From a plasmid: a stretch of 64,000 nt of DNA. The stretch lies in the sequence record NZ_CP142098.1; one strand, written 5' to 3'. Made by a program: the position numbers and the translations under genes. The notes beneath the pieces are model-generated. The model was given only the letters and a program-made list of their open reading frames with translations. It had not been told where the DNA came from and searched no databases. Shown one piece after another: positions 25,343-54,237 of this stretch (within the stretch, counting starts at the first letter, position 1; each line of letters begins with the position of its first letter).

Positions 25343-25380
25343 TTTTAGGGAAGGGGAGACAATTCTCCCCTTTTTGCTAT

Positions 25381-25795
25381 TGGTTTCCGGCGACGTTGAG
25401 TCGCCAAAAACCAACGATCGGTCGCTTGCAGCCGGCGATGCCGGCGCCGCTTTCACTGCCCGGCCGCTTGTGCGGCCGTTCGCTAAGGCAGCCAGGCTAA
25501 AGGCCTGGCACTTTCTGGTGCATCCCCTCAGGCCCGGCATCCGCGCAGAGAGACTGTCCCCGTGACAGACGCTGAGCCGGGGCGCCGCCGGCACAAGGGT
25601 AAGCGTTGCCGGCGTCCTCACCCGTTCGCACTCCCTTCCTCCCTGCGGTCGTTTGGTCGCTTGCGCTGCGGCCTGCGGCGCCGCCCTTGTACCGTCAGCT
25701 GATACCCCGTCTCGGTCTTGTTGTCACGGCGCCAGGCTCCCCGCGCCGGCGAAAGCCAAAAGGGGAATACACCAGAAAGAAGTCGTAACGGGAGG
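25381..25795. promoter_or_regulatory. Leading-region modular repeat copy A (modules M2+M3)
   Basis: About 415 bp, more than 95% identical to 34850-35250 and 40430-40812. Confidence 0.55.
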
Positions 25796-28410: not shown

Positions 28411-28801
28411 ATGGATGTTTTTGAGTTGAGATTATGGCGCGCCGGCCAATACTTTTCGCTGTCTGAGGCGCGTTCGCTGCGCCTGGGGAGCCATTGGCGG
28501 CAAGAGGATGCCGCCAATGCTCTGGGGGTGTCAGAACGGACTTATCGGACCTATGAAAATAGTGGCGTGTCCCGAACAGCTCGCCTGGGGATCCAGACAC
28601 TGATGCTGGTCCGCTTGTTACCCGATTTGCGTCGAATGGAGCAACCGCAAATCGTTTTGCAACTGCAGGCGCTAACGCGCCACGATCAGACTACACCTCA
28701 GTCCAGGGGCGTGGTATCACTTATTATGCCTTCAGCAGGTATGAAGGCATGGCGAGGGGCGCTGGGTTGGACGCAAAAGCAGACCGCGGATTATCTTGGG
28801 G
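28411..28801 (+). pseudogene. 5' part of a tandem-HTH (XRE-like) regulator gene interrupted by the IS66-family element
   Basis: The reading frame runs into the IS inverted repeat (…TQKQTADYLGG|KRHI*). The 3' part resumes at 32705 (…LGVSLRTVKNYEQG…), recreating a canonical helix-turn-helix across the insertion. Confidence 0.75.
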
Positions 28802-28887
28802 GTAAGCGTCACATTTGAACCGCCTGTCAGAGAGGCCCGCTTTCCCTGAAAATAATGTCCATCATCTGTTTAATGGACATTATTTTA

Positions 28888-29519
28888 TGAGTGAACGGGC
28901 ATGGTTGTTTGAGGTCTTTCGTCTTCACTATCAGGAACAGCTGTCTCAGAACCGCATCGCCAAACAGCTGGGGCTACCCAGGTCAACAGTCAACAGCTGT
29001 TTCCAGCGCGCTATCAAGGCCGGTGTTCGTTGGCCCGTCAACGAACTGACGCTGGAACGCACCCTTTATCCCGGTAAAAAACGGTCACGCTCCTCAGCAT
29101 CACCGCCGCTACAAACACCGATAACGGCCGTGCCATCAAAACCCAAAAGAAGGGGACGCAGACCCAACTTCCCGCTGGCGTTCAAGCTGGCGCTGGTTGA
29201 ACAATCAATGCAGCCTGGCGTCAGTACCGCCAGGCTGGCGCGCGAGCATGGCATCAACGACAACCTGTTGTTCAACTGGCGCAACCTTTACAAGCAGGGG
29301 CGCCTCGGCACGCCTCTTCCCGCTGAGCACTGCCTGTTGCCGGTGGAACTGGAAGATATGCCATCATCACCGCCTATAACTGAAGCAGATAAAACACCAC
29401 CCTCCGATGCCGCGGAATGTGAACTGGTGCTGCCTGCCGGCACGTTACGGCTCCGGGGTGCACTCAGTCCTGCCTTGCTGAGCATGTTGATCCACGAGTT
29501 GAAAGGAACGCGCCGATGA
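28888..29519 (+). CDS. tnpA: IS66-family accessory protein TnpA (orf1; HTH)
   Basis: C-terminal half (…FKLALVEQSMQPGVSTARLAREHGINDNLLFNWRNLYKQG) is the IS66 orf1 helix-turn-helix. The true start is uncertain; the ORF-track TTG at 28815 lies inside the inverted repeat. Confidence 0.7.
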
Positions 29520-29863
29520 TGTCGCTGCCGGCGGGCAGTCGCATCTGGATCGTGGCCGGCATCACCGACATGCGTAACGGTTTTAACGGGCTGGCTTCAC
29601 GGGTTCAAAATACTCTGCGTGACAATCCCTTCTCGGGCCAGGCCTTCATCTTCCGAGGGCGCCGCGGCGATATGATTAAAGTGCTGTGGGCCGACGCAGA
29701 TGGCCTGTGCCTGTTCACCAAACGCCTGGAGCGCGGTCGCTTCGTCTGGCCGGCGGCGAGAAACGGCAAAATTCATCTGACACCGGCCCAGCTGGCGATG
29801 CTGTTGGAAGGCATCAACTGGAAACACCCGCAACGGATGGAACGGCCTGGCCTGAGGATATAA
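29516..29863 (+). CDS. tnpB: IS66-family TnpB (orf2)
   Basis: …WIVAGITDMRNGFNGLASRVQ…DMIKVLWADADGLCLFTKRLERGRF… is a typical IS66 orf2. Overlaps orf1 by 4 nt. Confidence 0.85.
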   Translation: MMSLPAGSRIWIVAGITDMRNGFNGLASRVQNTLRDNPFSGQAFIFRGRRGDMIKVLWADADGLCLFTKRLERGRFVWPAARNGKIHLTPAQLAMLLEGINWKHPQRMERPGLRI

Positions 29864-29882
29864 CCTGTTGTAAGGTAGGGGT

Positions 29883-31448
29883 ATGGTTGCTTCCTACCCC
29901 GATGAAAACGCCCGACTCCGGGCGCAGCTGCTGGAGCAGCAAAACACGCTTCGACAAATGGCGGAGTACAATCGCCTGCTCTCGCAACGGGTGGCGGCGT
30001 ATGCCAGCGAAATCAACCGGCTGAAAGTCCTGGTTGCCAAACTGCAACGCATGCAGTTCGGCAAGAGCTCCGAAAAGCTGCGGGAAAAAACGCAGCGCCA
30101 GCTACGCGAAGCGGAAGAACACATCAACGCCCTGCAGGAAGAGCTGGCTGAGACGCTGGGCGAACAGCATGATCCGGCGTTGCCGCAGCCGTTACGGCAG
30201 TCCTCTGCTCGCAAGCCCTTGCCAGCTAGCATACCGCGCGAAACACGCGTGCTCCCTCCGCAAGAAAGTACCTGCCCGGCGTGTGGCGGCGGCCTCAGCC
30301 TGCTCGGGTGCGATATCTCGGAACAACTGGAGCTCATCAGCAGCGCCTTCAAGGTCATCGAAACGCAGCGGCCAAAGCTGAGCTGTTGCCGGTGCGACAC
30401 CATCGTGCAATCGCCGATGCCCTCAAAACCTCTCGAGCGCAGCTACGCCGGTCCCGGCTTACTGGCGCGCATCGTCACGGCGAAGTTCGCCGAACACACG
30501 CCGCACTACCGCCAGTCGGAAATCTACCGTCGACAGGGTGTGGAGCTGAGTCGGGCCACGCTCGGGCGCTGGTCTGGCGCGGTGAGTGAACTGCTGGAGC
30601 CGCTGTATGAGCTGTTGCGGGAGTATGTGCTGATGCCGGGCAAGGTGCATACCGACGACATCCCGGTGCCGGTCCAGGCGCCGGGGAGTGGCAAGACCCG
30701 CACCGGCCGTCTGTGGGTATACGTGCGTGATGATCGCAACGCGGGCTCGGTGATGCCGCCGGCGGTGTGGTTCGCGTACTCACCGGACCGCAAGGGCATC
30801 CATCCGCAGCAGCACCTGGCCGGGTACAGCGGTATCCTGCAGGCCGATGCGTATGGGGGCTACAACGCACTGTATGAGAACGGGCGCATCACGGAAGCCG
30901 CCTGCATGGCGCATGCGCGGCGAAAAATCCACGATGTTCATGTCCGCACACCGACCGACATCACCACGGAAGCGCTGAGACGCATCGGTGAGCTGTACGC
31001 CATCGAAGCCGAGATACGCGGCAGCCCTGCGGAGAAGCGGCTGTCGGTCAGAAAAGCGAAGACGGTGCCGCGGATGCAATCGCTGTACGACTGGATCCAG
31101 ATACAGATGAAAACGCTGTCACGCCACGCGGAGATGGCGAAGGCGTTCGCTTATCTGCTGAAACAGTGGAATGCGTTGACTCTCTACTGCGAGAAAGGCT
31201 GGGCGGAAATCGACAACAATATCGCAGAGAACGCCCTGCGCGGTGTCGCGCTGGGGCGAAAAAACTGGTTGTTCGCCGGGTCAGATGCAGGCGGAGAACG
31301 TGCTGCGATACTGTACTCGCTGATCGGCACGTGCAAACTCAACGGCGTGGAGCCGGAAGCGTGGCTGCGCTACGTCATCGGACATATCCAGGACTGGCCG
31401 GTAAACCGAGTCCGCGATCTGCTGCCATGGAAGGTCGATATCATTTAA
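29883..31448 (+). CDS. tnpC: IS66-family transposase (orf3/TnpC)
   Basis: 521 aa with a leucine zipper, a CxxC…CxxC zinc-finger region and a DDE core typical of IS66 transposases. Confidence 0.9.
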
Positions 31449-31663
31449 TATTGAGCGCCTGTACGACCTGTATGTAGCTCTTATAAAAATAACATCACTA
31501 ATTAAATTATAAAGTTGGTGTTATTGCATAAGTTTAGATATATCACGTCCTGTGAGCCCTCTCACAAACGTAACCTTTATACAAGGAGTACGACGCCGTC
31601 GTAATCTTACTTCGTCAATTACTGGCTCATTTAAACGGGCTCAACTTACGAAGAGAGGTTCCA

Positions 31664-32602
31664 ATGTCATATCCACAAACGAAACTATCTGGTCTGACTG
31701 GTTTTGCTAAAGCGGCCAACGTTACAGGGGGGTGGTCAGGTTCAGTGGTGAGTATTACCACGCTAGATCAACTTAAAGAAAATATCGCTGACAACACACC
31801 GCGAGTCTTGGTGATCGACAGAAACATTTCCGCACCAACCCTCACAAAAGTTCCGTTAGGCGCCAACAAAACCCTGGTTGGCTCCTTTCAAAGTCGTACG
31901 CTGAATAACATTCATCTGCGTGCCACGGCGAGCTCGCAAAATATCATATTTCAGAACTTGGTATTTCAGCACTCACAAAGCATCAAGGATAATGATGATA
32001 TTCAATTATACCTGAACTACGGTAGTAAGTATTGGGTCGACCATTGTTCGTTTGTGGGGCATAGTTGGTCATCAAATGATGGAAGTCTGGATAAGCTTCT
32101 ATATGTTGGTGATAAAGCGGATTATGCAACCATTAGTAACTGCTTGTTTTCAAACCACAAATACGGTCTAATCCTCGGCCATCCGGCGGACGACAATAAC
32201 ACCGCCTATAACGGCTTCCCTCACCTGACACTATGCCACAACCATTTCGAAAACATGGAGGTCCGTGCACCTGGCCTGATGCGTTACGGTTATTTTCACG
32301 TTTATAACAACTATATTAACCATTTCCACCTTGGTTTTACGCTGGCGCAAAACGCCAATATCCTTTCCGAGAACAACTATTTTGGTGCGGGTAGCGAGAA
32401 CAACGGCATGTTGGATGACAAAGCCAACGGTACTTTTACTGATACAGGCAGCGTTCCCGCCATCACAAATCAGAAATCGCCAAAAGCGAATTGGACAGCG
32501 TCGTCCAATTACAGCTACACCCTTAAAACCGCCGTGCAGGCGAAAGCCTTTGCCACCACTAACGCCGGAGCACAGTCTGCTTCGCTGGTATTTGGAGGAT
32601 AA
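31664..32602 (+). CDS. Pectate lyase, PL1 (PelC-like) family; passenger gene inside the IS66 element
   Basis: YWVDHCSF (vWiDH motif) and VRAPGLMRYGYFHVYNNY (R-x-P-x2-R-x-G-x2-H-x2-NN pectate-lyase signature). Low GC. No obvious Sec signal peptide. Confidence 0.75.
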   Translation: MSYPQTKLSGLTGFAKAANVTGGWSGSVVSITTLDQLKENIADNTPRVLVIDRNISAPTLTKVPLGANKTLVGSFQSRTLNNIHLRATASSQNIIFQNLVFQHSQSIKDNDDIQLYLNYGSKYWVDHCSFVGHSWSSNDGSLDKLLYVGDKADYATISNCLFSNHKYGLILGHPADDNNTAYNGFPHLTLCHNHFENMEVRAPGLMRYGYFHVYNNYINHFHLGFTLAQNANILSENNYFGAGSENNGMLDDKANGTFTDTGSVPAITNQKSPKANWTASSNYSYTLKTAVQAKAFATTNAGAQSASLVFGG

Positions 32603-32704
32603 TCAGGTAGTGACGTAAATTTATAAAAAAGGTTCCGGAGGGGGATTTGTCTCCTCTCCGGAGCATTATAGTAAGCATCAATACGGTCTGCATGTGACGC
32701 TTAC

Positions 32705-32879
32705 TCTTGGGGTTTCGCTTCGGACCGTCAAGAACTATGAGCAAGGGGTTTTGCCGCGTCGACTGATGTTGGCCGCACAGGCTGTTACGCTGATAACGTT
32801 GTTGCCGGTCTGGGCAACCTATCCGTCAGCCAGGTTACTGCAGGTTCTGGAGCAACTGGTTAATATTGAAGTGAAATAA
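32705..32879 (+). pseudogene. 3' part of the IS-interrupted tandem-HTH regulator gene
   Basis: …(G)VSLRTVKNYEQGVLPRRLMLAAQAV… continues the HTH begun at 28760-28801 across the inserted element. Confidence 0.7.
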
Positions 32880-33034: not shown

Positions 33035-33215
33035 AACGTAGCCGTGCCGCTGCGCCTGCAAGGGTACGCGTTGCCCATATCCTCACCCGTTCGCACTCAC
33101 TCTCTCCCTGCTGTCGTTCGCTCGCTTGCGCATGCGGCTTGCGGTATGGCCCCTGCATTCTCCGCTTTCCGCACGTCTGTGTTTTGGCTACGGCGCAAGC
33201 CGATATCCGACAACC
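33035..33215. promoter_or_regulatory. Leading-region repeat copy B (variant of module M3)
   Basis: …agggtacgcgttgccc…cctcacccgttcgcactc…cgcttgcgcatgcggc… as in the other copies. Confidence 0.5.
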
Positions 33216-34780: not shown

Positions 34781-34849
34781 TAATTTATCCGGGCGAGTAG
34801 CCCGGATATCTCCTCCACGTGTGATGTATCGACGTTGCGCGCGTTTGGT

Positions 34850-35250
34850 TTTTAGCGACGTTGAGTCGCTAAAAACCAACGATCGGTCGCTTGCAGCCGG
34901 CTTCGCCGGCGCCGCTTTCACTGCCCGCCCGCTAATGCGGCCGTTCGCTAAGGCAGCCAGGCTAAAGGCCTGGCACTTTCTGGTGTATCCCCTCATGCCC
35001 GGCATCCGCGCAGAGAGACTGTCCCCGTGACAGACGCTGAGCCGGGGCGCCGCCGGCACAAGGGTACGCGTTGCCGGCGTCCTCACCCGTTCGCACTCCC
35101 TTCCTCCCTGCGGTCGTCCGTTCGTTTGCGCTGCGGCCTGCGGCGCCGCCCTTGTACCGTCAGCTGGTACCCCGTCTCGGTCTTGTTGTCACGGCGCCAG
35201 GCTCCCCGCGCCGGTGAAAGCCAAAAGGGGAATACACCAGAAAGAAGCCG
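34850..35250. promoter_or_regulatory. Leading-region modular repeat copy D (M2+M3)
   Basis: Near-identical to copies A and F. Confidence 0.55.
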
Positions 35251-40204: not shown

Positions 40205-40297
40205 AAAACCATGCAGGCAATTGGCCTGCATTAATCTCACTGCGGATAATAACGAGAATTTACTGTCGTACAGGCAGATGCATTAAAATTAAGCTAT

Positions 40298-40812
40298 GAG
40301 CTTCCTCCGGTGTCTGGCCGCACGCGTCCAGCCATCAGCCCAACTCGACTAGCCGCCCGCCTGCGGTCGTCAAGTCTCGCCGAACCCGCGTTGCGGTTTC
40401 GGGCCAGTCGGCTATGGTCTGAAAGCCAACTGCAACATCAAAGACTAGCGCTTGCAGCCGGCGATGCCGGCGCCGCTTTGACTGCCCGCCCGCTAATGCG
40501 GCCGTTCGCTAAGGCAGCCAGGCTAAAGGCCTGGCACTTTCTGGTGTATCCCCTCATGCCCGGCATCCGCGCAGAGAGACTGTCCCCGTGACAGACGCTG
40601 AGCCGGGGCGCCGCCGGCACAAGGGTACGCGTTGCCGGCGTCCTCACCCGTTCGCACTCCCTTCCTCCCTGCGGTCGTTTGGTCGCTTGCGCTGCGGCCT
40701 GCGGCGCCGCCCTTGTACCGTCAGCTGATACCCCGTCTCGGTCTTGTTGTCACGGCGCCAGGCTCCCCGCGCCGGCGAAAGCCAAAAGGGGAATACACCA
40801 GAAAGAAGCCGT
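40298..40812. promoter_or_regulatory. Leading-region modular repeat copy F (M1+M2+M3, the longest copy)
   Basis: Contains all three modules. M2+M3 is near-identical to copies A and D. Confidence 0.55.
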
Positions 40813-40841
40813 TGCGGCTTCTGAGTTACTGACTAACGGGA

Positions 40842-41306
40842 GTGGTTATGTCAACGATCGAGCAACAGCAGCAACAACAAATGGTTTTTTATATTCCGGG
40901 AACAACGTGGCCACTGGATGTCGCAATCTGGCTGGAAGATCGCTTTGTCACGTCGTCAGGCAAAACGCTTGAACAGCTACAGCAGCGTAATCCTGCATGT
41001 GTTCTGGTGTCGTATGAAGAAGCGAAGCGCGGGATGTATGAGGCCGCAAGTCTGCCTGTCCGTCGTATCAGCAAAGATGAGTACATGGACAAGTTGGAGA
41101 TGTTGCCGCCGCTCGATTGGAAGTATTTTGATGGCCAAGAATCTTTCAAGATGATGGAAATGTATTGCGGGAATATTACCGATATTTTCGCCCAGCTTGG
41201 CAATAGCTATTTTGCGATGCGCGATCATGTTTCGTTACCACATGCTGAGATCATGCAGCGTGTGCGTACATTTATAGATGCCGAGTCTGCGGCCGTAGCA
41301 GCCTGA
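40842..41306 (+). CDS. Hypothetical leading-region protein (154 aa, poly-Gln near the N-terminus)
   Basis: ORF downstream of repeat copy F. Confidence 0.45.
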   Translation: MVMSTIEQQQQQQMVFYIPGTTWPLDVAIWLEDRFVTSSGKTLEQLQQRNPACVLVSYEEAKRGMYEAASLPVRRISKDEYMDKLEMLPPLDWKYFDGQESFKMMEMYCGNITDIFAQLGNSYFAMRDHVSLPHAEIMQRVRTFIDAESAAVAA

Positions 41307-41363
41307 ATAGTTTCCCTCGGTGTTAGCAACACCGGGGGATCCTCGATAAGAAGGAAATCGACA

Positions 41364-41513
41364 ATGATTATTGATGACTATATCGCGGCAATCGGTCGTA
41401 AAATTTGGGAACAATGGCAAGAAAATAAACCGGTAATTATTCCAGCTCTTAAAGGTTTTGAGTGGGCACAGTTGCTCCGCTACTTAGAACTAAAACGGGG
41501 CTATGCGTGTTGA
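41364..41513 (+). CDS. Small protein (49 aa), missed by the ORF track
   Basis: Strong AAGGAA ribosome-binding site 8 nt upstream of the ATG. Followed by an intrinsic terminator. Confidence 0.35.
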   Translation: MIIDDYIAAIGRKIWEQWQENKPVIIPALKGFEWAQLLRYLELKRGYAC

Positions 41514-41530
41514 CTCATGATATGAACTGA

Positions 41531-41557
41531 GCCACCCAATTGGGTGGCTTTTTATTT
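41531..41557 (+). terminator. Rho-independent terminator
   Basis: gccaccca-att-tgggtggc perfect hairpin followed by ttttta. Confidence 0.7.
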
Positions 41558-41940
41558 CGGCTGTCGCCTGTCTGCGGCGTCGAGCCGCTGACAGGCGAAC
41601 AAAGCGCTTGCAGCGGGCTGAGCCCGCGCCGCTTTTGCAGTTTCCATCAAGATGAAAACTGTAAGGCTATCAGGCTCCGCCTGATGTTACGTTTTGGTGT
41701 TTCCATTTCCTCTGCGGTGCTTAGCGGCATGTCTTTTGCTGTGACAGACCTTGTGCCGGGGCACCTACATCGCAAGGGTTCGCTACCGCCGTCCATCCTC
41801 GCCCGTTCGCACTCACTCAACGCAGTTTCGTTCGCTTGCGCATGCGGCCTGCGGTGTCGCCCATGCGTTGCAGGTTTATACCCCGTCACGGTCATTGCGT
41901 CACAGCACAAGACGCGCCGCTCCGGCAAAACCGGAATAAA
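41545..41940. promoter_or_regulatory. Leading-region repeat copy G (variant M2/M3)
   Basis: …cgctaccgccgtccatcctcgcccgttcgcactcac…cgcttgcgcatgcggcctgcgg…. Confidence 0.5.
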
Positions 41941-41968
41941 TGGCAACACCGAAAACAGACTGAAGGGG

Positions 41969-42796
41969 ATGAATATGAAGCGACTGTATAGCGGATTTCG
42001 CCAGGCAAATGTGATCCGCCAAACTCGACCATTGACAAATGATGAGTTATTCCGTCACGTACCAAGTGTTTTCTCTGAAGAAAAACATGCATCACGTAGT
42101 GAGCGTTATACCTACATACCAACGATTAATTTGTTGGATAGACTCCGCGAAGAAGGTTTCCATCCATTTTATGCTTGCCAAACAAAAGTTCGCGATGATG
42201 ATAAACGTGGTCACACGCGGCACATGCTAAGGCTTCGTAGAAATGGTTTCGGTCAAAATGATGAGGTTCCTGAGATTATTTTACTTAATAGTCACGATGG
42301 GAGTAGCAGCTATCAAATGATTCCGGGCATATTTAGATTTGTTTGTAACAACGGTTTAGTGTGCGGCGACACGTTCGGGGAAGTCCGTGTTCCACACAAA
42401 GGGGATGTTGTTGGAAGAGTGATTGATGGTGCTTATGAAGTGCTAAGTTTTTTTGAAAAAGTAACGGATTCTCGTGATGAAATGAAGGCGGTTATTCTTG
42501 ATAAGAACGAGCAACATGTGTTTGCTGATGCCGCATTAGGGTACAAATATTTTGGAGAGCATCAACCAATAACAGCAGAACAGGTGCTGAGTCCACGACG
42601 CTGGCAGGATAAGAAAGATGATTTGTGGACAACGTTTCAAAGGGTGCAAGAAAACATAATAAAAGGTGAAATACCTGGAATCAGCGCCAACGGAAAGCGA
42701 AACAGAACTCGTGCAGTCAATAGCATAACTGGCGATGTAAAGCTCAATAATGCGTTGTGGAAAATGGCAGAAACCATGAAAAACCTGAAGTCGTAA
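41969..42796 (+). CDS. DUF932-family protein (leading-region protein)
   Basis: 276 aa from MNMKRLYSGFRQ…. The longer TTG-initiated ORF in the track runs through repeat copy G and is unlikely. Confidence 0.55.
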   Translation: MNMKRLYSGFRQANVIRQTRPLTNDELFRHVPSVFSEEKHASRSERYTYIPTINLLDRLREEGFHPFYACQTKVRDDDKRGHTRHMLRLRRNGFGQNDEVPEIILLNSHDGSSSYQMIPGIFRFVCNNGLVCGDTFGEVRVPHKGDVVGRVIDGAYEVLSFFEKVTDSRDEMKAVILDKNEQHVFADAALGYKYFGEHQPITAEQVLSPRRWQDKKDDLWTTFQRVQENIIKGEIPGISANGKRNRTRAVNSITGDVKLNNALWKMAETMKNLKS

Positions 42797-42818
42797 TGAT
42801 AGGGTTCTGGCGGTTTAA

Positions 42819-43145
42819 ATGCCGCCAGAAATTAAAAATATGAAAAGACAAATTGAATTTAAACGATGCCTTGTTTGCAGTACAGAACACTTGACTTATG
42901 AAGATAACTTGCTTTTAAGTAAAGCAACAAGTGAAAACTGGGTTTTTGGTTATGACTACGGGTTTGTTATTGATTTATGGAAAAGACATCATTTTGTTTT
43001 GCATGCAAAACGATTCGGATTATCTAAAGATTTCAGAAAATTGATTTTTACTCTTATAAAAAAGTATGAAATAGAAATGATACAGTTCGATTGTGATGCT
43101 GATATTATAGAAGGAGTTAAGTTGCATAAATCTGACTACTGGTGA
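42819..43145 (+). CDS. Low-GC hypothetical protein (about 100 aa)
   Basis: ORF only. Nearest plus-strand gene to oriT. Confidence 0.35.
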   Translation: MPPEIKNMKRQIEFKRCLVCSTEHLTYEDNLLLSKATSENWVFGYDYGFVIDLWKRHHFVLHAKRFGLSKDFRKLIFTLIKKYEIEMIQFDCDADIIEGVKLHKSDYW

Positions 43146-43152
43146 CCCGTTT

Positions 43153-43186
43153 TATCCGGTATCGGCATTGAACCGATACCGGATAA
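43153..43186. terminator. Bidirectional hairpin between convergent genes
   Basis: ttatccggtatcgg-cattgaa-ccgataccggataa, 14-bp perfect stem. Confidence 0.55.
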
Positions 43187-43216
43187 TCTGTCGTCATTGT
43201 GCATTAAAAAAGAAAT

Positions 43217-43531
43217 TCATACCTGTGATGATTCTGTTTTGTTTTTATCTTTGATATGACTATTTCTCTTCTTTCCTGATTTGATTGTGCTTGTGTTTTT
43301 TATAATTTCATTTATGGCTCTCTCACTGACAACGATTTCACAGCTTTCAAGTGCAGATTTGATATCTTTTGCTGTGTAACCTTTTTGCGTTGCTAGCGAT
43401 ATGATCTGTCCCTTAAGTTCATCCAAAACTTCCTTGGAACTTAATCTCTCTTTGCTCAAGTCCGGCAACTCTGTTAGAGCTACTTTTGCCAACTCAACTT
43501 GTTCTTGACTGTATTGGTTCTTAGCCGCCAT
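43217..43531 (-). CDS. Low-GC hypothetical helical/basic protein (possible DNA-binding protein)
   Basis: 104 aa with a Lys-rich C-terminus. Confidence 0.4.
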   Translation of the reverse strand: MAAKNQYSQEQVELAKVALTELPDLSKERLSSKEVLDELKGQIISLATQKGYTAKDIKSALESCEIVVSERAINEIIKNTSTIKSGKKRNSHIKDKNKTESSQV

Positions 43532-43599
43532 TTCTCTTTCCTGTGTTAGTCATCAATCAACATTGTGTATCAATGATATACGTCAGCGTCATCATGACA

Positions 43600-43800
43600 C
43601 AACAGGCAAATTTGTTCTCCCATGGTGTAATGACAATCCAGGCAAAGTAGGCCATAATACGCTAGTCCGGTCTCAAACACGGGACAGGATATGTTTTGTA
43701 GCACCGCCTGCACGCAGTCGGCTCTACAAAACGTCCTGGTCAGGGCAGAGCCCCGACACCCCACGAGACTGTAAACTGACGAGACTGATAGGGATAACAT
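43600..43800. other. Candidate oriT of the IncI-like transfer system
   Basis: Non-coding region immediately upstream of nikA. Inverted repeat ttttgtag…ctacaaaa (43694-43731) encloses a near-palindrome ctgcacgcag. Confidence 0.45.
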
Positions 43801-43804
43801 CACC

Positions 43805-44146
43805 ATGAGTAAAAGCGAGCGCCGGAACAGAACAGCCCTGCTGCCCAGCATTCGTTGCTTCCCAGAGGAAAAGTCAGTGATCCAGGAAAAGGCGACCGCG
43901 GCCGGTTTAAGTATCGGGGCGTACATGCTTAAGTGTGGCCTCGGTCGCCGAATCGATGCTCGTTGTGACGTTGAGCTCATCAATGAACTACGCCGTTTAG
44001 GTGGCCTTCAAAAACACCTCTTCAACGAGGGGAAGGGAAATGTAAGTGATGCTTTCAGCAAGCAGTATTCGGATGTGCTTGTTGCGATAAAAAAAGCCAT
44101 CATCGCAATCGATATGGGCATGACCAATGAAGGTGATAAGGCATGA
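43805..44146 (+). CDS. nikA: Relaxosome accessory protein NikA (ribbon-helix-helix)
   Basis: 113 aa. …GAYMLKCGLGRRIDARCD…LRRLGGLQKHLFNEGKG… is collinear with R64 NikA (…MRLGRMQKHLF…). Confidence 0.7.
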   Translation: MSKSERRNRTALLPSIRCFPEEKSVIQEKATAAGLSIGAYMLKCGLGRRIDARCDVELINELRRLGGLQKHLFNEGKGNVSDAFSKQYSDVLVAIKKAIIAIDMGMTNEGDKA

Positions 44147-46071
44147 TTCCTATCGTTCCTGAGAAGCGAAGAGATGGCCGCTCCAGCTTCATTCAGTTGG
44201 TCAGTTATCTGACTCTGCGCGATGAGGATAAGCCTGATTTGCCTATCTCTCCTGAGAATCCCTATGTTCGTCCATCGCGTTCAAAGGCTGCAATCTTTGA
44301 CCGCCTGGTAGGGTATCTTGATCGTAATGCTGGGGGGGGTCAGCAGACCCTTTTGGCTATGTTTGCAGACGGTACGCAGCAGGTTAAATCAGGCGAAGTG
44401 GTGTGTGAAACGAACTGCTTCAGTCTGGAAACTGCATCGGCGGAGATGAACGCCGTGGCTATGCAGAACACTCGCTGCGTCGACCCGGTTTATCACTGTA
44501 TTCTTTCGTGGCGTGAAGAGGACACTCCGACCGATCAGCAAATTTTCGAGAGTGCGCGTTATTGCATTAATCAGCTGGGAATGGCTGATCATCAGTACGT
44601 GTTTGCTGTCCATCGAGACACCGATAACGTCCATTGCCATATCGCGGTTAATCGTATCCATCCCGAGTCCTATCGTGCGGCTAACATGTATAAAGATGTC
44701 GACACACTTCACAAAGCCTGTCGTCATCTTGAGTTGAAGCATGGGTTTACACCTGATAATGGTGCATGGAAAGTAAATGAACATCAGCAGGTTGTTCGTA
44801 GCCAAAATGAATTCAAATGTATCCCACGTAAGGCTCGGCAGCTGGAGTATTATGCCGACTCAGAAAGCCTCTTTAGTTATGCTGTAGGTGAATGCCGTCA
44901 AGCGATTGGCGACATCATGGCAGATCCTGAACGCCTATCCTGGCAGAACCTCCATAATGAATTGAATCGTGCAGGCCTTGTATTGAAACAAAAGGGGGAA
45001 GGGTTAGCCATCTACTCGATTCAGGATTCGAGCTTGCCTCCTATTAAGGCAAGCGGCTTGCATCCTGATCTTACACGTTCCTGCATGGAACCGTATTTGG
45101 GGGAGTTCACTTCCGCGCTTGATGTTGACGCTGTGGCATCTCCTAAGCATCCAGAATACGTATATGACCCGCGTTTCCACGCACGCGATCTGATGGCTCG
45201 GGTTGAACGTCGCCAGGCTAGGGCTGAAGCAAGAGCAGATCTTAAAGCCCGTTATCAGGCGTACAAATCGGCATGGGTTCGTCCAAAATTGGATGCTGAT
45301 GAAATCAAAGCCAGGTATAAAAACATGTCCAAACGTTTTGCCTGGCGTAAGGCTAAAGCACGCGTTGAATTACGCGATCCCCTTTTGAGAAAACTGACTT
45401 ATCACATTATTGAAGTTGAGCGGATGAAGGCTATGGCCGCATTGCGATTGGCCATCAAGGAAGAACGACAGGCGTTCAAAGCTGCTCCGGAAAACCGACG
45501 TCTGTCATATAGAGGTTGGGTTGAACAACAGGCGTTGATGCACGATCAGGCCGCAATTGCTCAGTTGCGTGGATGGTCCTATAGATTGAAACGCTCATCC
45601 CTGACTCCTAGCGTTTCTTTGAACGGGATCCGTTTCGCGGTATCGGATGACAGCAAACCATTAGCCATAGACGGTTACCAGACCCGAATCATGCGAGACG
45701 GTGTTGTTCAGTATGTTCAGAATGGGGTTGTTCAATTGCAGGATCGTGGTGAGCGCATTGAGGTTGCCGATTCACAGGTTATGGATGGGCAGCACATTAT
45801 TACCGGGCTGGTGATAGCGCAGAGTAAATCGGGTGAGGAGATGGTACTGGAGGGCGATCGTCAATATGTCCAACAATCTTGCGAACTTGTCTCTTGGTTT
45901 AATGAAGAGTCAGGAACCTCCCTGCCATTAACAGAAACCAGTCAAAGAACGCTTGCAGGGTATGGATCATTGCCAACCGAAAATTCTCACGGAGCAACTG
46001 ATTCTAGTGTTAACGAGCAGCGTGAACTGGATGGTTATATCCAGCGGCCAAATGGTCCTCGTCCACACTAA
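44143..46071 (+). CDS. nikB: MOBP-family relaxase (NikB-like)
   Basis: Histidine-triad motif HRDTDNVHCHIAVNRI and an N-terminal relaxase domain. Overlaps the nikA stop. Confidence 0.85.
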   Translation: MIPIVPEKRRDGRSSFIQLVSYLTLRDEDKPDLPISPENPYVRPSRSKAAIFDRLVGYLDRNAGGGQQTLLAMFADGTQQVKSGEVVCETNCFSLETASAEMNAVAMQNTRCVDPVYHCILSWREEDTPTDQQIFESARYCINQLGMADHQYVFAVHRDTDNVHCHIAVNRIHPESYRAANMYKDVDTLHKACRHLELKHGFTPDNGAWKVNEHQQVVRSQNEFKCIPRKARQLEYYADSESLFSYAVGECRQAIGDIMADPERLSWQNLHNELNRAGLVLKQKGEGLAIYSIQDSSLPPIKASGLHPDLTRSCMEPYLGEFTSALDVDAVASPKHPEYVYDPRFHARDLMARVERRQARAEARADLKARYQAYKSAWVRPKLDADEIKARYKNMSKRFAWRKAKARVELRDPLLRKLTYHIIEVERMKAMAALRLAIKEERQAFKAAPENRRLSYRGWVEQQALMHDQAAIAQLRGWSYRLKRSSLTPSVSLNGIRFAVSDDSKPLAIDGYQTRIMRDGVVQYVQNGVVQLQDRGERIEVADSQVMDGQHIITGLVIAQSKSGEEMVLEGDRQYVQQSCELVSWFNEESGTSLPLTETSQRTLAGYGSLPTENSHGATDSSVNEQRELDGYIQRPNGPRPH

Positions 46072-46086
46072 TTTTTTGAAAAAAAA

Positions 46087-46121
46087 ACCGACTGCAGGCC
46101 TGATAACCTGAGTCGGCTTTT
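46087..46121. terminator. Bidirectional terminator hairpin between nikB and the convergent gene
   Basis: ccgactgcagg…cctgagtcgg stem flanked by an A-run and a T-run. Confidence 0.45.
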
Positions 46122-46123
46122 CA

Positions 46124-46441
46124 TTAATGGAGGCGTGAGTATAACGTCTTCAGCATGGGTTGATAGGCTTGCCAACCCTCGTCATCGTTCCCTTCCAGCT
46201 CTGTGAACATATCAATAAGACGGTGAAAAACATTGTCATGCTTTTCTTCAGTAAGTACATCGGGAGCTGGAAAATGGTTGAGTAGCCTGGCAGCTTCGTC
46301 ATGCAACGTTTCGATGTGAGTTTGTGATTTTTGATCTTCCGTATTCTTTAATTTTTTCTCTGCCAGGACTATCAACAGGGTGGCGCATAGTCGAACCATC
46401 TCAATGTACCCGCGTTGATAGTCCATGGTGTCTTCACTCAT
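46124..46441 (-). CDS. Hypothetical acidic protein (105 aa)
   Basis: ORF only. Confidence 0.35.
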   Translation of the reverse strand: MSEDTMDYQRGYIEMVRLCATLLIVLAEKKLKNTEDQKSQTHIETLHDEAARLLNHFPAPDVLTEEKHDNVFHRLIDMFTELEGNDDEGWQAYQPMLKTLYSRLH

Positions 46442-46731
46442 TTTTGTGCCTCAATATCCTGGGGGTTACGGTTGGCTTTCACGCCAAAGCCGTTCGAATT
46501 CTTTCTGGTATATTGCAACCAGATTAGGTTGATTGTGAATGACCAAGACGTACTCAGCATTTTTACGGCGGCAGCTGAATAGTTATAGCTTCCCAGCTGC
46601 ACAGTATTATCAACGTTCAACATCAGCTTATTGTGCATGATGACGTATTGGCCATTGCTACGTACAAAGATACCTTTGTTGGTAAGGCAAGTGGCAACGA
46701 TATATTTTGCGTTAGCCTTGGCTTCTACCAC
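46438..46731 (-). pseudogene. nuc: Fragment of a PLD-family endonuclease (Nuc-like)
   Basis: HxKx4D phospholipase-D motif (VIMHNKLMLNVD). Only about 97 aa. An in-frame stop lies immediately upstream, so the signal peptide and N-terminal half are missing. Confidence 0.5.
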
Positions 46732-46799
46732 AATGCGGAATTTTACTCCTCGGCGTTTTGCTGCAACAAGGCGCAGCTATTGCGGCAGCCGTTTGGCAT

Positions 46800-48980
46800 T
46801 TACCCATATCGCTCCTCTCGATGGTGTTCGGACGTAGCGAGAGCCTTCGCTATGTCCTTTGACACTCTTATTGGTTTTGGCGCCGTAGGTTGTTGTTTCC
46901 AACGTCGCTTGTGCAGCTTCAATGCCACCCTGGCGGCTTCAAACAGTAAAATACCGCGTTGTGCTGGCGTATAACTGACGTCTGCCCGGTGATTAAGATC
47001 CAGAGATAGCGCCACTACGCTTTGCAATACAGGGTCCATCAGGCCGTTGCAGGTTGTTTGAGATGGTGGCGATTCCAGGCGTGTAAGGATGGTTTCGACT
47101 TCTTGTGCGGACGGCGGCAGCTTTTTCTTGAGTGTGGGGTTTGCATCCAACAGTTCAGCCTCTGTTGGCATATCTAGGTTCACAAACCGGTTGATACGCA
47201 TTGGCAGTGCTGAAGTCATCTTATCGTCATCTTGGATATAGATGGCATTACTTGGGATCAGTGCGCTTTTGAAAGAGATCATACCTTCGCCAGGGTTCAT
47301 ATCTTTCAAATCCCCCAAATCGAGACGGTCCTTTTCCCTAATGACGTTACTGCCAGCATCCTCGAAGTGTGGGGTGATCAGCCCGCCCTGTTGCTCTACG
47401 GCTCCGAGCTCAGAATAGTACCCTTTACCGCCGGTAATCCGTGCAAGTTCGAAGGTATCCTTCTCGTCCTGCAACGTCATGAACCACTTTGTCAGTAGGT
47501 TGGCGTTTACGGTCATGTACTCGCCCTTGTGCTCGGCGATGAAACGTTGAATGTCCTGTGCAGATACGATGAGCATATAGCCCAGACTGCGCATCTGGCT
47601 TGCCAGATTATCCATGCCAGGACCGAAATAGGCGCCCAGCTCGTCCATGGCGATCGGGAACGGGAAATTTCCTTTGTATTTTTTGACGATCAACACATCG
47701 TTCATCATGCCCTCAAGCTCAAACCCCAAATCTCTGGCCATGGTCATGCGTATCGCCGAAATGTAGAGTTTGCCAATATTGGCAGCTTCGCCTTTAGATA
47801 ACTCCAACGCAGGAATTGTGGTGCAGAGGATGCGGTCGTTATGCAGAACGTCCTCAATATCGACGTCGCCGGCGTCAGTAGAAAAAATATGGCCGTAGAG
47901 ATCGTTAAACATGGTCAGCATGCGGTTGAATTGCTGAATGAGGTAGCCATGCTGGTCGTAAACCCCTTGTTCCCACTCAGAGGGGCGGCTGATCAGTTCG
48001 ATTCTAAAGCCTGCCAGAGTGTTGAAGTAGTTCTCCAGCGGGTTATAAGCCTCCTGATGCCAACCATCTCTTTTAGCTTCCAGATAAAGCTCCGCCAGTT
48101 TTCTCAGCGGTAAGTATTCCTGAATGACCCTTTGCGAGATCCGCCGCTTTTCGCGTTTGCACTTGTAGTAAACGGCATATACCAAAGCGGCAAGCATTGA
48201 TTTGGCCTTGTCTTGCCAGCCTTGGTCGCCGCTGCCGGCAGGCGGCAACATGGATTCCATCAACTGAATGATGAACGTTGTGTTGGCAGTACCGAATAGA
48301 TTTATGGTGTTCGAGGGCTGTCGCTTTTTGTCATTGAGCAGCAGCTGCAGCAGCTTGTCGGAACCGCCTGTCATGAAGTTGAGGACGTAGAAATCATCCT
48401 CACGCCCAAAACGGCGTGCGAGTGACCACATGGCAAATGCCAAGGTATTCTGCCCCTTACCATCGGAATAACAGATCCCCCGTCCCCAACAGATGGCATT
48501 GAGGAAGACAGATAACAGCGCTTCTGTTTTTCCGGAACCTGTTGTTGCCAATAGCAACATGTGCCTCAGTGCATCATCGAGTGTCAACCACAGCTCGCGT
48601 GCAAGGGCTTTGCCCCTGGCAAATCCCAGGCACATCACACCGGCCGCGCGCTGGTATTTACGGGTTCGCACCACATAACGGAAAAATCCGCCAATGCCGT
48701 TACGATATTTTGGCATTTCACGTTCTGTAGTCAGATCCATGCCACCTATATCAGTAGGTAAACGGAGCGGCATGCGAAAAGGCTGATCGCCGAATAGCAT
48801 CAACTGAAGTAACGCCGCCGGCGTTGTGAGCAGCAATGAAGCAGGTGAATGTATAGCGAGTCCAATGGCGCCGGCGAGAGAAAGCTGAACGCCTATCGGT
48901 GAAAGTAATGCATCTTGAATGATGGTTTGGCCAAGGGGGCGTCGAACTCGACGGACATCGACTTCTACAGGCTGAGACAT
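46800..48980 (-). CDS. trbC: Type IV coupling protein (R64 TrbC / DotL-IcmO-like)
   Basis: 726 aa with Walker A LLLATTGSGKTEAL. Position and size match R64 trbC. Confidence 0.75.
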   Translation of the reverse strand: MSQPVEVDVRRVRRPLGQTIIQDALLSPIGVQLSLAGAIGLAIHSPASLLLTTPAALLQLMLFGDQPFRMPLRLPTDIGGMDLTTEREMPKYRNGIGGFFRYVVRTRKYQRAAGVMCLGFARGKALARELWLTLDDALRHMLLLATTGSGKTEALLSVFLNAICWGRGICYSDGKGQNTLAFAMWSLARRFGREDDFYVLNFMTGGSDKLLQLLLNDKKRQPSNTINLFGTANTTFIIQLMESMLPPAGSGDQGWQDKAKSMLAALVYAVYYKCKREKRRISQRVIQEYLPLRKLAELYLEAKRDGWHQEAYNPLENYFNTLAGFRIELISRPSEWEQGVYDQHGYLIQQFNRMLTMFNDLYGHIFSTDAGDVDIEDVLHNDRILCTTIPALELSKGEAANIGKLYISAIRMTMARDLGFELEGMMNDVLIVKKYKGNFPFPIAMDELGAYFGPGMDNLASQMRSLGYMLIVSAQDIQRFIAEHKGEYMTVNANLLTKWFMTLQDEKDTFELARITGGKGYYSELGAVEQQGGLITPHFEDAGSNVIREKDRLDLGDLKDMNPGEGMISFKSALIPSNAIYIQDDDKMTSALPMRINRFVNLDMPTEAELLDANPTLKKKLPPSAQEVETILTRLESPPSQTTCNGLMDPVLQSVVALSLDLNHRADVSYTPAQRGILLFEAARVALKLHKRRWKQQPTAPKPIRVSKDIAKALATSEHHREERYG

Positions 48981-49036
48981 AGGTGTTCCTGGTGATCTAA
49001 CGGGGATTGGGCCCGGAGCTGAGTCCAGGCGAACAA

Positions 49037-49981: not shown

Positions 49982-49999
49982 TGACTCTATGGTGTGGGC

Positions 50000-51325: not shown

Positions 51326-51471
51326 GAATTACTCCAATATGTTTAAACCCAGTCATAAGGAAAATGACTGGGTTTAAACAAGAGGTTGCACCAAATAGGG
51401 ATGTTGGAAAAGAAAGAGCGCCTAGAAAGGCGCTCGATAATATGAACTGAGTTGAAAAAATTAAAAATGAG

Positions 51472-52050
51472 TTAATAAGCCAAAGATTTTTGTTTCACGA
51501 ACTTGTTGAAAGTGTTGCCTGAGTCTTTTTCTGGTCGATAAGATGATGACAGTAAAGCATCCAACTTGCGACCAAAGTTCATGCATTTACTTTCCGTTCC
51601 TGCACTGATACGGAAGTAGGGGAAATAAACGTCATTAAACTTCAGTGTTAGCATATTTCCATTGCACTCATACCCTGAAAGTTCGAGTGTCGTCTTTCCT
51701 TGGTAAATGGACTCAGTAGTTGACACCAACAACATGGTTCCACTTCTAACGTCAATGCCTAAATATTTACCTGCATCCAAGGTTTTGAGTTCATACTCAT
51801 CGGTTGGAGAAAACTCATTGCACTTGAATACCTCGATTACGTTACGTGTTTTTGATTTTGATTTTTCTTGCACTTTCGAAAATGCATAAATGAACGTTGC
51901 GCCAATTACCAGGAAGATGTAAGGCCACGATGGGTTGCTTCTTGCGTCTGATACGTAAAAAAGAACCATTGAAAAGAGTAGGCAGCCTACACCAGAGGTT
52001 AATGCAAAAAGTAAAAAGAGAGTCCTTAAGTGATTTTGGTATTTCGTCAT
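51472..52050 (-). CDS. excA: Low-GC membrane protein in the position of the entry-exclusion gene excA
   Basis: 192 aa with an N-terminal transmembrane hairpin, located between traY and trbA as R64 excA is. Confidence 0.4.
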   Translation of the reverse strand: MTKYQNHLRTLFLLFALTSGVGCLLFSMVLFYVSDARSNPSWPYIFLVIGATFIYAFSKVQEKSKSKTRNVIEVFKCNEFSPTDEYELKTLDAGKYLGIDVRSGTMLLVSTTESIYQGKTTLELSGYECNGNMLTLKFNDVYFPYFRISAGTESKCMNFGRKLDALLSSSYRPEKDSGNTFNKFVKQKSLAY

Positions 52051-54191: not shown

Positions 54192-54237
54192 AAGATTTCA
54201 CCAGTCGGAGTGCCTGACGTAAACAGGCAAGAGGGAG

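Follow-up and report, generated by a model that had tools for sequence, protein, structure and literature searches.

Genes and features of the locus

The window analysed is the whole 64-kb (64,000-nucleotide) stretch of plasmid DNA from record NZ_CP142098.1. Between positions 28411 and 32879 it contains a regulator gene interrupted by a 3,903-bp unit (28802-32704), in which the genes of an IS66-family insertion sequence (IS) are followed by a lyase gene, pnl. The features, with strand in brackets, are as follows.

28411..28801 (+): 5′ part of a disrupted 185-aa two-HTH (XRE-type) regulator gene (Pfam HTH_3; restored ORF), ending in the left duplication
28794..28801 (no strand): left copy of the 8-bp target-site duplication, TCTTGGGG, which occurs just once at this position in the empty-site plasmid
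28802..28822 (+): left inverted repeat (IRL), GTAAGCGTCACATTTGAACCG; 13/13 and 17/21 matches to the outer right repeat; same end in the cargo-free Serratia IS
28887..29519 (+): tnpA, 210 aa, accessory protein of IS66 that has an additional HTH at its N terminus (NCBIfam NF038385, IS66_access_TnpA, E=5e-55, full length; Pfam HTH_Tnp_1)
29516..29863 (+): tnpB, IS66 Orf2, 115 aa (Pfam PF05717, TnpB_IS66, E=2e-38)
29883..31448 (+): tnpC, intact IS66 DDE transposase, 521 aa (Pfam DDE_Tnp_IS66, positions 1-283/284, E=4e-101)
31400..31484 (+): mosaic 3′ terminal segment of the IS, in which sliding identity to the cargo-free Serratia IS drops from 91-100% to 56-62%
31452..31484 (+): inner vestigial right inverted repeat, TGAGCGCCTGTACGACCTGTATGTAGCTCTTAT, at which the IS formerly ended; it aligns colinearly with the canonical right repeat
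31485..32671 (+): cargo block of 1,187 bp, 44.7% GC, with pnl, its own upstream region and a terminator (GC values; match to an IS-free locus)
31551..31566 (+): perfect CRP-type core, TGTGA-N6-TCACA, some 100 bp before the start codon of pnl; present nowhere else in the window
31664..32602 (+): pnl, encoding a PL1 lyase of 312 aa from the leaderless Pnl (pectin lyase) family (PF00544, E=5e-61; homologues and key residues)
32634..32662 (+): imperfect GC-rich hairpin 3′ of pnl, a likely terminator, read from the sequence and conserved in the IS-free locus L005
32672..32704 (-): outer right inverted repeat, functional and 33 bp long (reverse complement GTAAGCGTCACATGCAGACCGTATTGATGCTTA), a homologue of the canonical IS66-type right repeat
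32705..32712 (no strand): right copy of the 8-bp target-site duplication, TCTTGGGG (sequence check)
32713..32879 (+): 3′ part of the disrupted HTH regulator gene (restored ORF compared with AP028474.1)

The gene order tnpA, tnpB and tnpC (DDE) is that of the IS66 family, with the tnpB start overlapping the tnpA stop (ATGA). In addition to the DDE domain, tnpC matched zf-IS66, LZ_Tnp_IS66 and IS66_C, and NCBIfam transpos_IS66 with E=1e-136. All three genes, which the original prediction had placed between the ends as orf1 to orf3, were intact by their Pfam and NCBIfam matches.

Boundaries and insertion site

A scripted sequence check showed that the terminal inverted repeats of the 3,903-bp unit have identical tips (13/13) and match at 17 of the first 21 bp, in agreement with the earlier estimate of 13 identical and about 17 of 21 bp. 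The left end opens with GTAAGCGTCACAT at 28802 and the right end closes with ATGTGACGCTTAC at 32704; both ends thus start with GTAAGCGTCACAT, a tip of the GTAAGCG type of IS66 and the same as that of cargo-free relatives. This 13-mer tip was present at exactly two sites in the 64-kb window, namely the two element ends, and the remaining matches in the scan required 3 mismatches, which is chance level. Homology to every other copy ends at the outer right repeat, and TCTTGGGG comes immediately after it; the predicted 8-bp direct repeats are present at 28794-28801 and 32705-32712. Duplications of 8 bp, as in the IS66 family, were observed here (TCTTGGGG), in a second copy of the element (CAACGATC) and in a cargo-free relative (TCCTCCGA).

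The element lies at about codon 130 of the 185-aa two-HTH gene. Joining the flanks without it gave an in-frame 185-aa ORF, confirming that a continuous XRE-type HTH gene is restored, and this ORF was identical to the annotated protein of the uninterrupted gene on S. marcescens p14BL03_1 (AP028474.1). The latter plasmid matched the joined flanks at 99.9% in one piece, with a single TCTTGGGG at the site and neither IS nor pnl, and hence represents the empty site on a related plasmid that the original prediction had called for. In a related S. nevei plasmid backbone, homology breaks exactly at 28801/32701. The host of the element is an IncI-like (MPF_I, MOBP), conjugative-type Serratia plasmid, with the insertion situated in the leading/partition region.

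Recurrence of the element in other replicons

The passenger-carrying form with the same ends was found on an Enterobacter-type IncFII plasmid, 91.4% identical over exactly 28802-32704. This second copy carries its own 8-bp duplication, CAACGATC, and a matching empty site was located in E. ludwigii NZ_CP134669.1. The third context is a Serratia chromosome (CP047679.1) together with related contigs, in which the 3.9-kb unit has the same boundaries; the chromosomal copy in CP047679.1 lacks a target duplication. Since the unit recurs with the same boundaries in two other contexts, it appears to move as one piece, a movement read here from historical insertions, and the duplications and empty sites show that the unit moving today ends at the outer repeat. 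Together with the cargo-free relative described below, they bear out the claim that an IS66-family transporter IS (tIS) with a PL1 passenger had inserted as a unit. The structure is that of a tIS: pnl lies between tnpC and the outer right end, and the three contexts share identical outer boundaries, two of them with duplications of their own.

The transposase genes are decayed in the other copies and intact, among the copies compared, only in the present plasmid, and pnl is intact in all four full-length copies compared, which represent three genomic contexts. Between IS-borne copies the dN/dS of pnl was 0.09-0.17, and purifying selection acts on the gene. By exact-protein look-up, 128 blocks of the collection contain the gene; the plasmid context was the same in each of the 24 contigs read, and there is therefore no sign of recent movement from the present copy.

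The inner right end and origin of the element

A second IS boundary between tnpC and the lyase gene, which the original prediction had named as a sign that the lyase lies outside the IS, does exist at 31452-31484; the location of the lyase outside the IS does not follow from it, because the duplications and empty sites place the end of the moving unit at the outer repeat. The inner repeat stops exactly where the cargo begins. Its tip reads ...CTTAT here, mutated from the ...CTTAC that other copies keep, and matches the left repeat at 9-10 of 13 positions. The last ~85 bp before it are far more diverged than the remaining IS, and the PLSDB matches all stop at about 31443, except for a pnl-linked remnant. 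No cargo-free IS with an inner-type end was found among 2,498 matching PLSDB records. The history of the element included recombination between IS66 lineages and is only partly reconstructable.

The diverged right repeat between tnpC and the cargo suggests that the cargo began as DNA flanking an IS, and hence that the element arose from an IS beside pnl that switched to a downstream right end. By this account, an IS66 element would first have inserted just upstream of pnl, the order of events being deduced from the arrangement; its own right end would survive as the diverged inner repeat at 31452-31484, now bypassed and presumably inactive, and a second IS66-type right end, 1.19 kb downstream, would have become the working end. 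TnpC, with the accessory TnpA and TnpB, would then act on the left repeat (from 28802) and the outer right repeat (up to 32704), so that everything between them would be moved together and an 8-bp target duplication made. It is thus highly probable (about 0.85) that the locus contains a 3,903-bp passenger-carrying IS66-family element (tIS66) which moves pnl between its outer ends and arose by insertion of an IS beside pnl and recruitment of a second right end. The element may already bear a name in ISfinder.

Three other explanations were weighed against this reading. That an ordinary 2.7-kb IS66 had inserted beside a pectinase gene already resident on the plasmid, with both the outer and the 8-bp repeat there by coincidence, would agree with the recognisable, though diverged, right repeat directly 3′ of tnpC at 31452-31484, which is the usual IS66 end point. 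However, no duplication surrounds this inner boundary, plasmids with the uninterrupted HTH gene and one TCTTGGGG lack pnl as well as the IS, homology to the two other contexts begins and ends exactly at 28802 and 32704, and the second copy is flanked by an 8-bp duplication of its own and has a separate empty site; this explanation is extremely unlikely, and a location of the lyase outside the mobile element is refuted by the empty sites. The two IS66-type right ends would also be expected if two IS66 copies bracketed pnl and mobilised it jointly as a compound (composite) transposon, and a composite intermediate is one plausible route by which the outer end arrived. A compound transposon would have a complete IS copy on either side of the cargo, but the IS66 sequence downstream of pnl amounts to just 33 bp, with no second transposase gene set, and the same solo end is present in all copies examined; by definition, therefore, the present structure is a tIS and not a compound transposon, which we regard as very unlikely.

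One-ended or read-through transposition as in ISEcp1, in which a weak right end is skipped for an ad hoc surrogate end and the cargo length is accidental, could draw on the degraded inner end (...CTTAT; 9-10/13 against the left repeat) and on the poor match of the outer end to the left repeat beyond 21 bp. Three independent contexts with an identical outer end and the same 3.9-kb length argue against it, as does the nature of the outer end, whose 33 bp are a genuine right repeat of IS66 type, with homologues in cargo-free elements, and no chance look-alike, making such a process very unlikely. Within the preferred reading, that of a tIS66 with a recruited right end, we tentatively suggest that the element is a caught-in-the-act record of tIS formation, in which the original right end became mosaic and inactive, a second end was recruited, the neighbouring gene was fixed as cargo, and selection kept the cargo rather than the transposase; this is possible, but we would not assume it. 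If true, a leaderless, possibly CRP-controlled pectin lyase would be a trait under selection on plasmids that circulate in Serratia from clinical and environmental settings, and a plant or decaying-vegetation reservoir would be indicated for such lineages.

The cargo block and the Pnl protein

The extra low-GC DNA noted between the ends corresponds to the cargo block, whose GC content is 44.7%; that of the IS part is 59.4%. Positions 31533-32645 are matched at 82% by L005, an IS-free locus from a soil MAG. The CRP-type core, present once in the window against 0.04 expected by chance and partly conserved at loci L005, L026 and L003, is a candidate catabolite-control site for pnl. No sigma-70 consensus promoter was called in the pnl upstream region, and the hairpin at 32634..32662 was not called in a simple terminator scan.

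The original assignment of the cargo enzyme to PL1 is supported by PF00544 (E=5e-61) and by PDB matches to PL1 lyases (down to E=6e-19); its designation as a pectate lyase is not, as homologues and key residues place it in the Pnl pectin-lyase family. At the sequence level, Pnl has the Pectate_lyase_4/parallel beta-helix domain, the catalytic Arg, and the WVDH and RxPxxxRxGxxHxxNN motifs of PL1. The latter motif, earlier given as RAPxxRxGxxHxxNN, is present but one residue longer, RAPxxxRxGxxHxxNN (RAPGLMRYGYFHVYNN). Arg201 and Arg207 are kept and align with the catalytic and substrate-binding Arg of PL1 lyases. Asp112 and Asp143 are also kept, and the VdPelB Ca ligand Asp155 aligns with the family-invariant Tyr147, so that by alignment one Ca ligand of the triad is replaced; VdPelB Lys175, carboxylate-binding in pectate lyases, aligns with the family-invariant Tyr167. 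Identities of Pnl are 85% to a protein from P. marginalis, 79% to that of Erwinia persicina, 63-65% to those of Pectobacterium (63% to P. carotovorum protein P0052), 62% over 82% of the query to UniProt Q02726, 'Pectin lyase', and 54% to 'pectin lyase [Paenibacillus amylolyticus]', the names being the sources' own; the last is probably the biochemically characterised endo-pectin lyase of that species (PMC7267202). An incomplete Ca-binding triad, an aromatic residue in place of the carboxylate-binding Lys and full-length similarity to named pectin lyases, all on alignment, point to a Pnl-type pectin lyase and not a classical pectate lyase, which most likely cleaves methyl-esterified pectin by Ca-independent beta-elimination.

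The absence of an obvious Sec signal peptide, correctly noted before, is common to all sampled Gram-negative Pnl members, which start MSYP/MAYP and have no leader peptide; Gram-positive homologues are extended at the N terminus by about 30-45 aa. Pnl is probably not Sec-exported, like its Pectobacterium and Pseudomonas relatives.

Comparison with known systems

The Pnl proteins of Pectobacterium carotovorum (Q02726) and P. marginalis are likewise leaderless PL1 enzymes of 312-315 aa, colinear with the present one over the full length, and in E. coli expressing the P. marginalis enzyme, the protein builds up in the cytoplasm (PMC1325241). In contrast to the Serratia gene, theirs lie on chromosomes and are not carried by an IS. 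In Pectobacterium, to judge by the titles of studies that PMC6963963 and PMC7843439 cite, DNA damage induces Pnl together with carotovoricin under the control of RdgA/RdgB, whereas the region upstream of the Serratia pnl has no sign of either control and has a CRP-type site instead.

The cargo-free IS66 relative is a 2,684-bp IS on S. marcescens plasmids (CP018916.1 at 64205-66888; also AP028507.1) with its own duplication, TCCTCCGA. It shares with the present element the left repeat, the three genes and an 8-bp duplication, and the two are 93-95% identical in nucleotide sequence from the left repeat up to a point ~45 bp short of the tnpC end. Its right repeat, near-perfect and 23-24 bp long, overlaps the tnpC stop, and it has no cargo, whereas in the present element the last ~85 bp of the IS part are diverged and are followed by 1.19 kb of cargo and another right end.

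Elements of the tIS type, in which passenger genes with no role in transposition lie inside the repeats of a single IS and move with it, have been described for the IS66 family (bioRxiv 10.1101/2021.05.26.445724; PMC12888890); examples in the latter are ISPa75-fosZ, ISPsp18, ISPa120, ISPa128 and ISPsy43 of Pseudomonas. A gene for a plant-pectin-degrading enzyme carried by an IS66 tIS on a Serratia plasmid is thus a new example of an established category. According to PMC12888890, the ISPa75-fosZ group resembles the present element in having tnpA, tnpB and a DDE transposase, one passenger gene, with a promoter of its own, that follows the transposase and is enclosed by the terminal repeats, GTAA(G/C)CG-type repeats, target-site duplications at multiple sites, left and right ends from different IS66 lineages, and a passenger that was acquired from the chromosome of environmental bacteria. 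The present element still shows a vestigial inner right end, and the passages of PMC12888890 consulted mention none for ISPa75. The present element is also larger (3.9 kb as against 3.0 kb for ISPa75), its hosts are Serratia and Enterobacter-type plasmids and a Serratia chromosome, and its passenger, unlike the resistance gene of ISPa75-fosZ, encodes a plant-cell-wall enzyme.

Element ends and gene content

Sequence reading and a scripted check placed the 8-bp TCTTGGGG at 28794-28801 and again at 32705-32712, flanking an element whose left end reads GTAAGCGTCACATTTGAACCG from 28802 and whose right end, ...CGGTCTGCATGTGACGCTTAC, finishes at 32704. The inverted repeats at these ends have identical tips (13/13) and match at 17 of 21 positions. 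The 13-mer tip occurred exactly twice in the 64-kb window, both times at the element ends; the remaining matches needed 3 mismatches and were at chance level (15 found, 15.5 expected). Boundaries, inverted repeats and duplication had all been placed correctly in the original prediction, and the IS66 orf1, orf2 and orf3 and the PL1 gene in a low-GC block that it described were confirmed by family profiles and GC content. The features are as follows.

Features of the element (window positions)
28887-29519, tnpA, 210 aa (NCBIfam IS66_access_TnpA, E=5e-55)
29516-29863, tnpB, 115 aa (Pfam TnpB_IS66, E=2e-38)
29883-31448, tnpC, 521 aa (four of four IS66 transposase domains; DDE_Tnp_IS66 full length, E=4e-101)
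31452-31484, inner right repeat, diverged, TGAGCGCCTGTACGACCTGTATGTAGCTCTTAT (alignment with right ends of cargo-free relatives)
31664-32602, pnl, PL1 protein, 312 aa (PF00544, E=5e-61)
32672-32704, outer right repeat, TAAGCATCAATACGGTCTGCATGTGACGCTTAC (alignment with right ends of cargo-free relatives)

The IS part has a GC content of 59.4%, the extra block one of 44.7%, and the window as a whole one of 51.0%. In every respect that can be judged from sequence, the element is an IS66-family transporter IS (tIS), i.e. a single IS carrying a passenger gene inside its terminal repeats.

Insertion site and plasmid backbone

When the flanks were joined with a single TCTTGGGG, an in-frame 185-aa ORF with two HTH regions was restored, as had been predicted, and this ORF corresponds to the annotated protein of the uninterrupted gene. 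A search with the joined flanks found the uninterrupted gene in 67 Serratia plasmids, the best match being S. marcescens p14BL03_1 (GenBank:AP028474.1), which is unbroken, 99.9% identical over 695 bp, and has one TCTTGGGG at the site and an annotated protein identical to the restored ORF; the proposed comparison with such plasmids had therefore yielded an empty site. Colinearity with a PGAP-annotated S. nevei relative breaks exactly at 28801/32701. The 3.9-kb unit at 28802-32704 was inserted as a whole, in a simple event.

The target gene (28411-28801 plus 32713-32879) lies directly downstream of parM/stbB, and is conserved at 87% nucleotide identity or more in the 67 Serratia plasmids. Its 185-aa product has two XRE-type HTH regions in tandem, of which the insertion left the first intact and removed the second. 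The backbone carries parM/stbB, antirestriction genes, psiB/psiA, a MOBP relaxase gene and MPF_I transfer genes, the last two being covered by window positions 40297-57965, and the predicted conjugative-plasmid setting is therefore reasonable. It was also noticed that the plasmid leading region contains three copies (25380-25786, 34841-35250 and 40406-40811; 86-94% identical) of a repeat of about 300-400 bp, in the neighbourhood of the antirestriction, psiB and parB genes; a partial copy of 92 bp (33040-33131) follows the insertion at a distance of about 330 bp. Single-strand initiation or promoter elements are known from leading regions, and the repeat may be one of these.

Cargo-free relatives and the two right ends

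The closest PLSDB matches (93-95% identical) covered query positions 9 to about 2650 only, a stretch bounded by the left end and the end of tnpC. The cargo-free element of S. marcescens CP018916.1 is 2,684 bp long, has its own duplication, TCCTCCGA, and ends in a near-perfect right repeat of 23-24 bp that overlaps the tnpC stop; that of AP028507.1 resembles it. Alignment of these cargo-free right ends to the window revealed two homologues, the outer and the inner right repeats. Many cargo-free IS66 elements on Serratia, Enterobacter, Pantoea and Edwardsiella plasmids have right ends with 88-94% identity to the outer end, which matches the left repeat at 13 of the first 13 positions. The inner repeat, matching at 9-10 of these 13, is colinear with the tnpC end and finishes exactly at the start of the low-GC block, its tip being ...CTTAT in the window versus ...CTTAC in other copies. 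Identity to the cargo-free IS was 91-100% per 100-bp bin up to about 31400 and then fell to 56-62%, which argues that the last ~85 bp of the IS before the inner end come from another IS66 lineage. Among the 2,498 PLSDB records matching the region, none extended through an inner-type end, except for one pnl-linked remnant.

It had been stated beforehand that a second IS boundary between tnpC and the lyase gene would place the lyase outside the IS. Such a boundary does exist, in the form of the diverged inner right end, but the empty sites show that the lyase is not outside the unit, and they rule out pnl as resident plasmid DNA lying beside an IS. An assembly artefact was rejected in view of the identical sequence in many independent assemblies.

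Recurrence of the unit

A PLSDB search with the whole element found no record holding at least 80% of it, and the exact plasmid form is therefore absent from PLSDB; the copies described here were found by protein-based look-ups. In the plasmid context of the window, the exact pnl protein was present in 128 blocks of the assembly collection, all 24 contigs read had the same context, and one of them (L031) was 100% identical to the window over 4.3 kb; NCBI names this protein 'pectate lyase (plasmid) [Serratia sarumanii]' and MULTISPECIES Serratia. The passenger-carrying form recurs with identical ends in two further contexts, as the original prediction had proposed to check: 1) contigs L025-L028 encode a 97%-identical pnl protein, and their homology to the window spans exactly 28802-32704 (91.4%), flanked by a different 8-bp duplication, CAACGATC, in a backbone resembling Enterobacter IncFII-type plasmids, for which E. 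ludwigii NZ_CP134669.1 provides the empty site with one CAACGATC, and 2) the Serratia chromosome CP047679.1 and related contigs L036-L041 also match exactly 28802-32704 (93.4%), with no target duplication at the flanks, CTTAGCCA and ACCTGTTT, of the chromosomal copies. In copies outside the plasmid lineage of the window, the transposase genes are broken and pnl is intact, and the dN/dS of pnl between copies was 0.09-0.17. Therefore, at least two independent insertions have occurred and the cargo is under purifying selection.

In CP047679.1 (4508615-4521553), the full unit has a TraG_N-containing region on one side and a GerE-family regulator gene on the other, and in one genome an IS91-family transposase is nearby; the chromosomal copy may lie within an integrative element or may have been rearranged after insertion.

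S. marcescens plasmid OY970407.1 and one metagenome contig contain a remnant made up of the 3′ end of tnpC, the inner end and the first 130 bp of pnl. In the plasmid (5788-6344), and also in L034, an internal tnpC position (equivalent to ~31246) is joined directly to an IS66-type tip, GTAAGCG; the inner right end, the 130 bp of pnl and unrelated DNA follow. The arrangement looks like an internal deletion starting at the left end; more GTAAGC(G)-like motifs are located just upstream, at 5602 and 5653 of the plasmid. A PLSDB distant-mode search with the cargo block gave this remnant (344 bp, 96%) as the only close match, the other three being weak (65-73%) and inside the lyase gene. Metagenome scans with the outer right end gave no match, and those with the inner-end/cargo junction gave one 1.8-kb contig of the same structure as the OY970407.1 remnant; neither scan gave a new insertion site.

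The cargo gene and its product

The closest relatives of the pnl product are 312-aa Pseudomonas proteins (P. marginalis, 85%; P. fluorescens group, about 78-84%), with 79% identity to Erwinia persicina and 61-65% to Pectobacterium, Dickeya and Brenneria homologues; the matches include the P. carotovorum 'Pectin lyase' (UniProt:Q02726), and an NCBIfam search with the lyase gave no family match. Active-site roles were transferred from the VdPelB study by alignment to the VdPelB structure. The catalytic Arg (R201) and R207 are conserved, the Ca ligand Asp155 is replaced by an invariant Tyr147 in the Pnl family, and the carboxylate-binding Lys175 by an invariant Tyr167; both replacements, as aligned, go in the pectin-lyase direction as described. 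The predicted PL1 membership was thus correct and the pectate lyase assignment probably was not: judged by relatives and active-site residues, the cargo is a putative Pnl-type PL1 lyase, and the label 'pectate lyase' in the Serratia records would be better replaced by Pnl-type pectin lyase. A HrpW/HopAK1-type type III helper was considered and rejected, the nucleotide match to Pantoea hopAK1 being weak (68-73% over 143-242 bp) and the protein being colinear with Pnl enzymes over its full length.

In the family alignment, every Gram-negative member starts with MSYP or MAYP and has no leader; therefore the absence of a signal peptide, noted originally for this protein, is common to all sampled Gram-negative members. 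The original pnlA and pnl papers reportedly noted that a signal peptide is absent. In Paenibacillus and Bacillus homologues the N-terminus is extended by about 30-45 residues, and a signal peptide is predicted for P. amylolyticus Pnl (PMC7267202). P. marginalis Pnl accumulated in the cytoplasm of E. coli, and its secretion needed an added signal sequence (PMC1325241). According to the titles of works cited in PMC6963963 and PMC7843439, Pectobacterium pectin lyase is co-induced with carotovoricin by DNA damage under RdgA/RdgB.

The closest IS-free locus, in a soil MAG (L005), encodes an 89%-identical protein, and DNA identity to it is 82% over a stretch that begins 130 bp before the pnl start codon and extends through the post-gene hairpin; thus, the cargo is a whole gene that has kept its native control region and terminator. 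Consensus scans called neither a sigma-70 promoter upstream of pnl nor the hairpin after it. A perfect CRP-type core, TGTGA-N6-TCACA (TGTGAGCCCTCTCACA, 31551-31566), precedes pnl by about 100 bp; it occurs nowhere else in the 64-kb window (0.04 occurrences expected), and the other copies and the MAG locus retain it in part. This post hoc observation suggests catabolite control of pnl via the candidate site. The pnl 5′ region, which is strongly conserved in the MAG locus, has short inverted repeats at 31589-31603 (TACGACGCCGTCGTA) and 31600-31660 (CTTACTTCG...CTTACGAAG) that might fold into a leader structure.

Proteins 55-73% identical to the pnl product are annotated in insect genomes (P0041, P0047, P0059, P0063, P0066 and P0080), namely those of the gall midges Sitodiplosis mosellana and Contarinia nasturtii, the fungus gnat Bradysia odoriphaga and the bee Ceratina calcarata, which suggests horizontal transfer into insects or assembly contamination.

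Proposed capture model and comparison with known systems

The mobile unit, shown to make 8-bp duplications, runs from the left repeat through tnpABC, the inner end and pnl to the outer right repeat. Since the 13-bp tip is common to the left and outer right repeats only, TnpC with TnpA and TnpB would pair these two, the inner right end being presumably dead and bypassed. As to history, an IS66-family element would have come to lie immediately upstream of pnl, its 3′ end would have become mosaic by recombination among IS66 lineages, and a second IS66 right end downstream, which could be the leftover of another copy or derive from a composite intermediate, would have become the working end. The preserved inner end is the most useful feature of the element, since it documents cargo capture and provides a concrete, testable model in which the original end is lost and a second one downstream is used.

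Literature searches on Serratia together with pectin lyase and IS66 brought up no paper that describes the element. Both passenger-carrying IS66 elements and leaderless Pnl enzymes are already established, and current understanding is not overturned. The element shows that IS66 transporter elements move ecological traits, beyond resistance genes, between replicons and genera, the trait here being a plant-pectin-degrading enzyme and the hosts comprising plasmids and a chromosome of Serratia together with an Enterobacter-type plasmid. ISfinder/TnCentral recognises transporter ISs as a category, which is said to be confined to the IS1595 and IS66 families (bioRxiv 10.1101/2021.05.26.445724). According to PMC12888890, 7 of 25 IS66 entries of Pseudomonas carry passengers, and the left and right ends of ISPa75-fosZ resemble different IS66 elements; the capture outlined here parallels that proposed there for ISPa75-fosZ.
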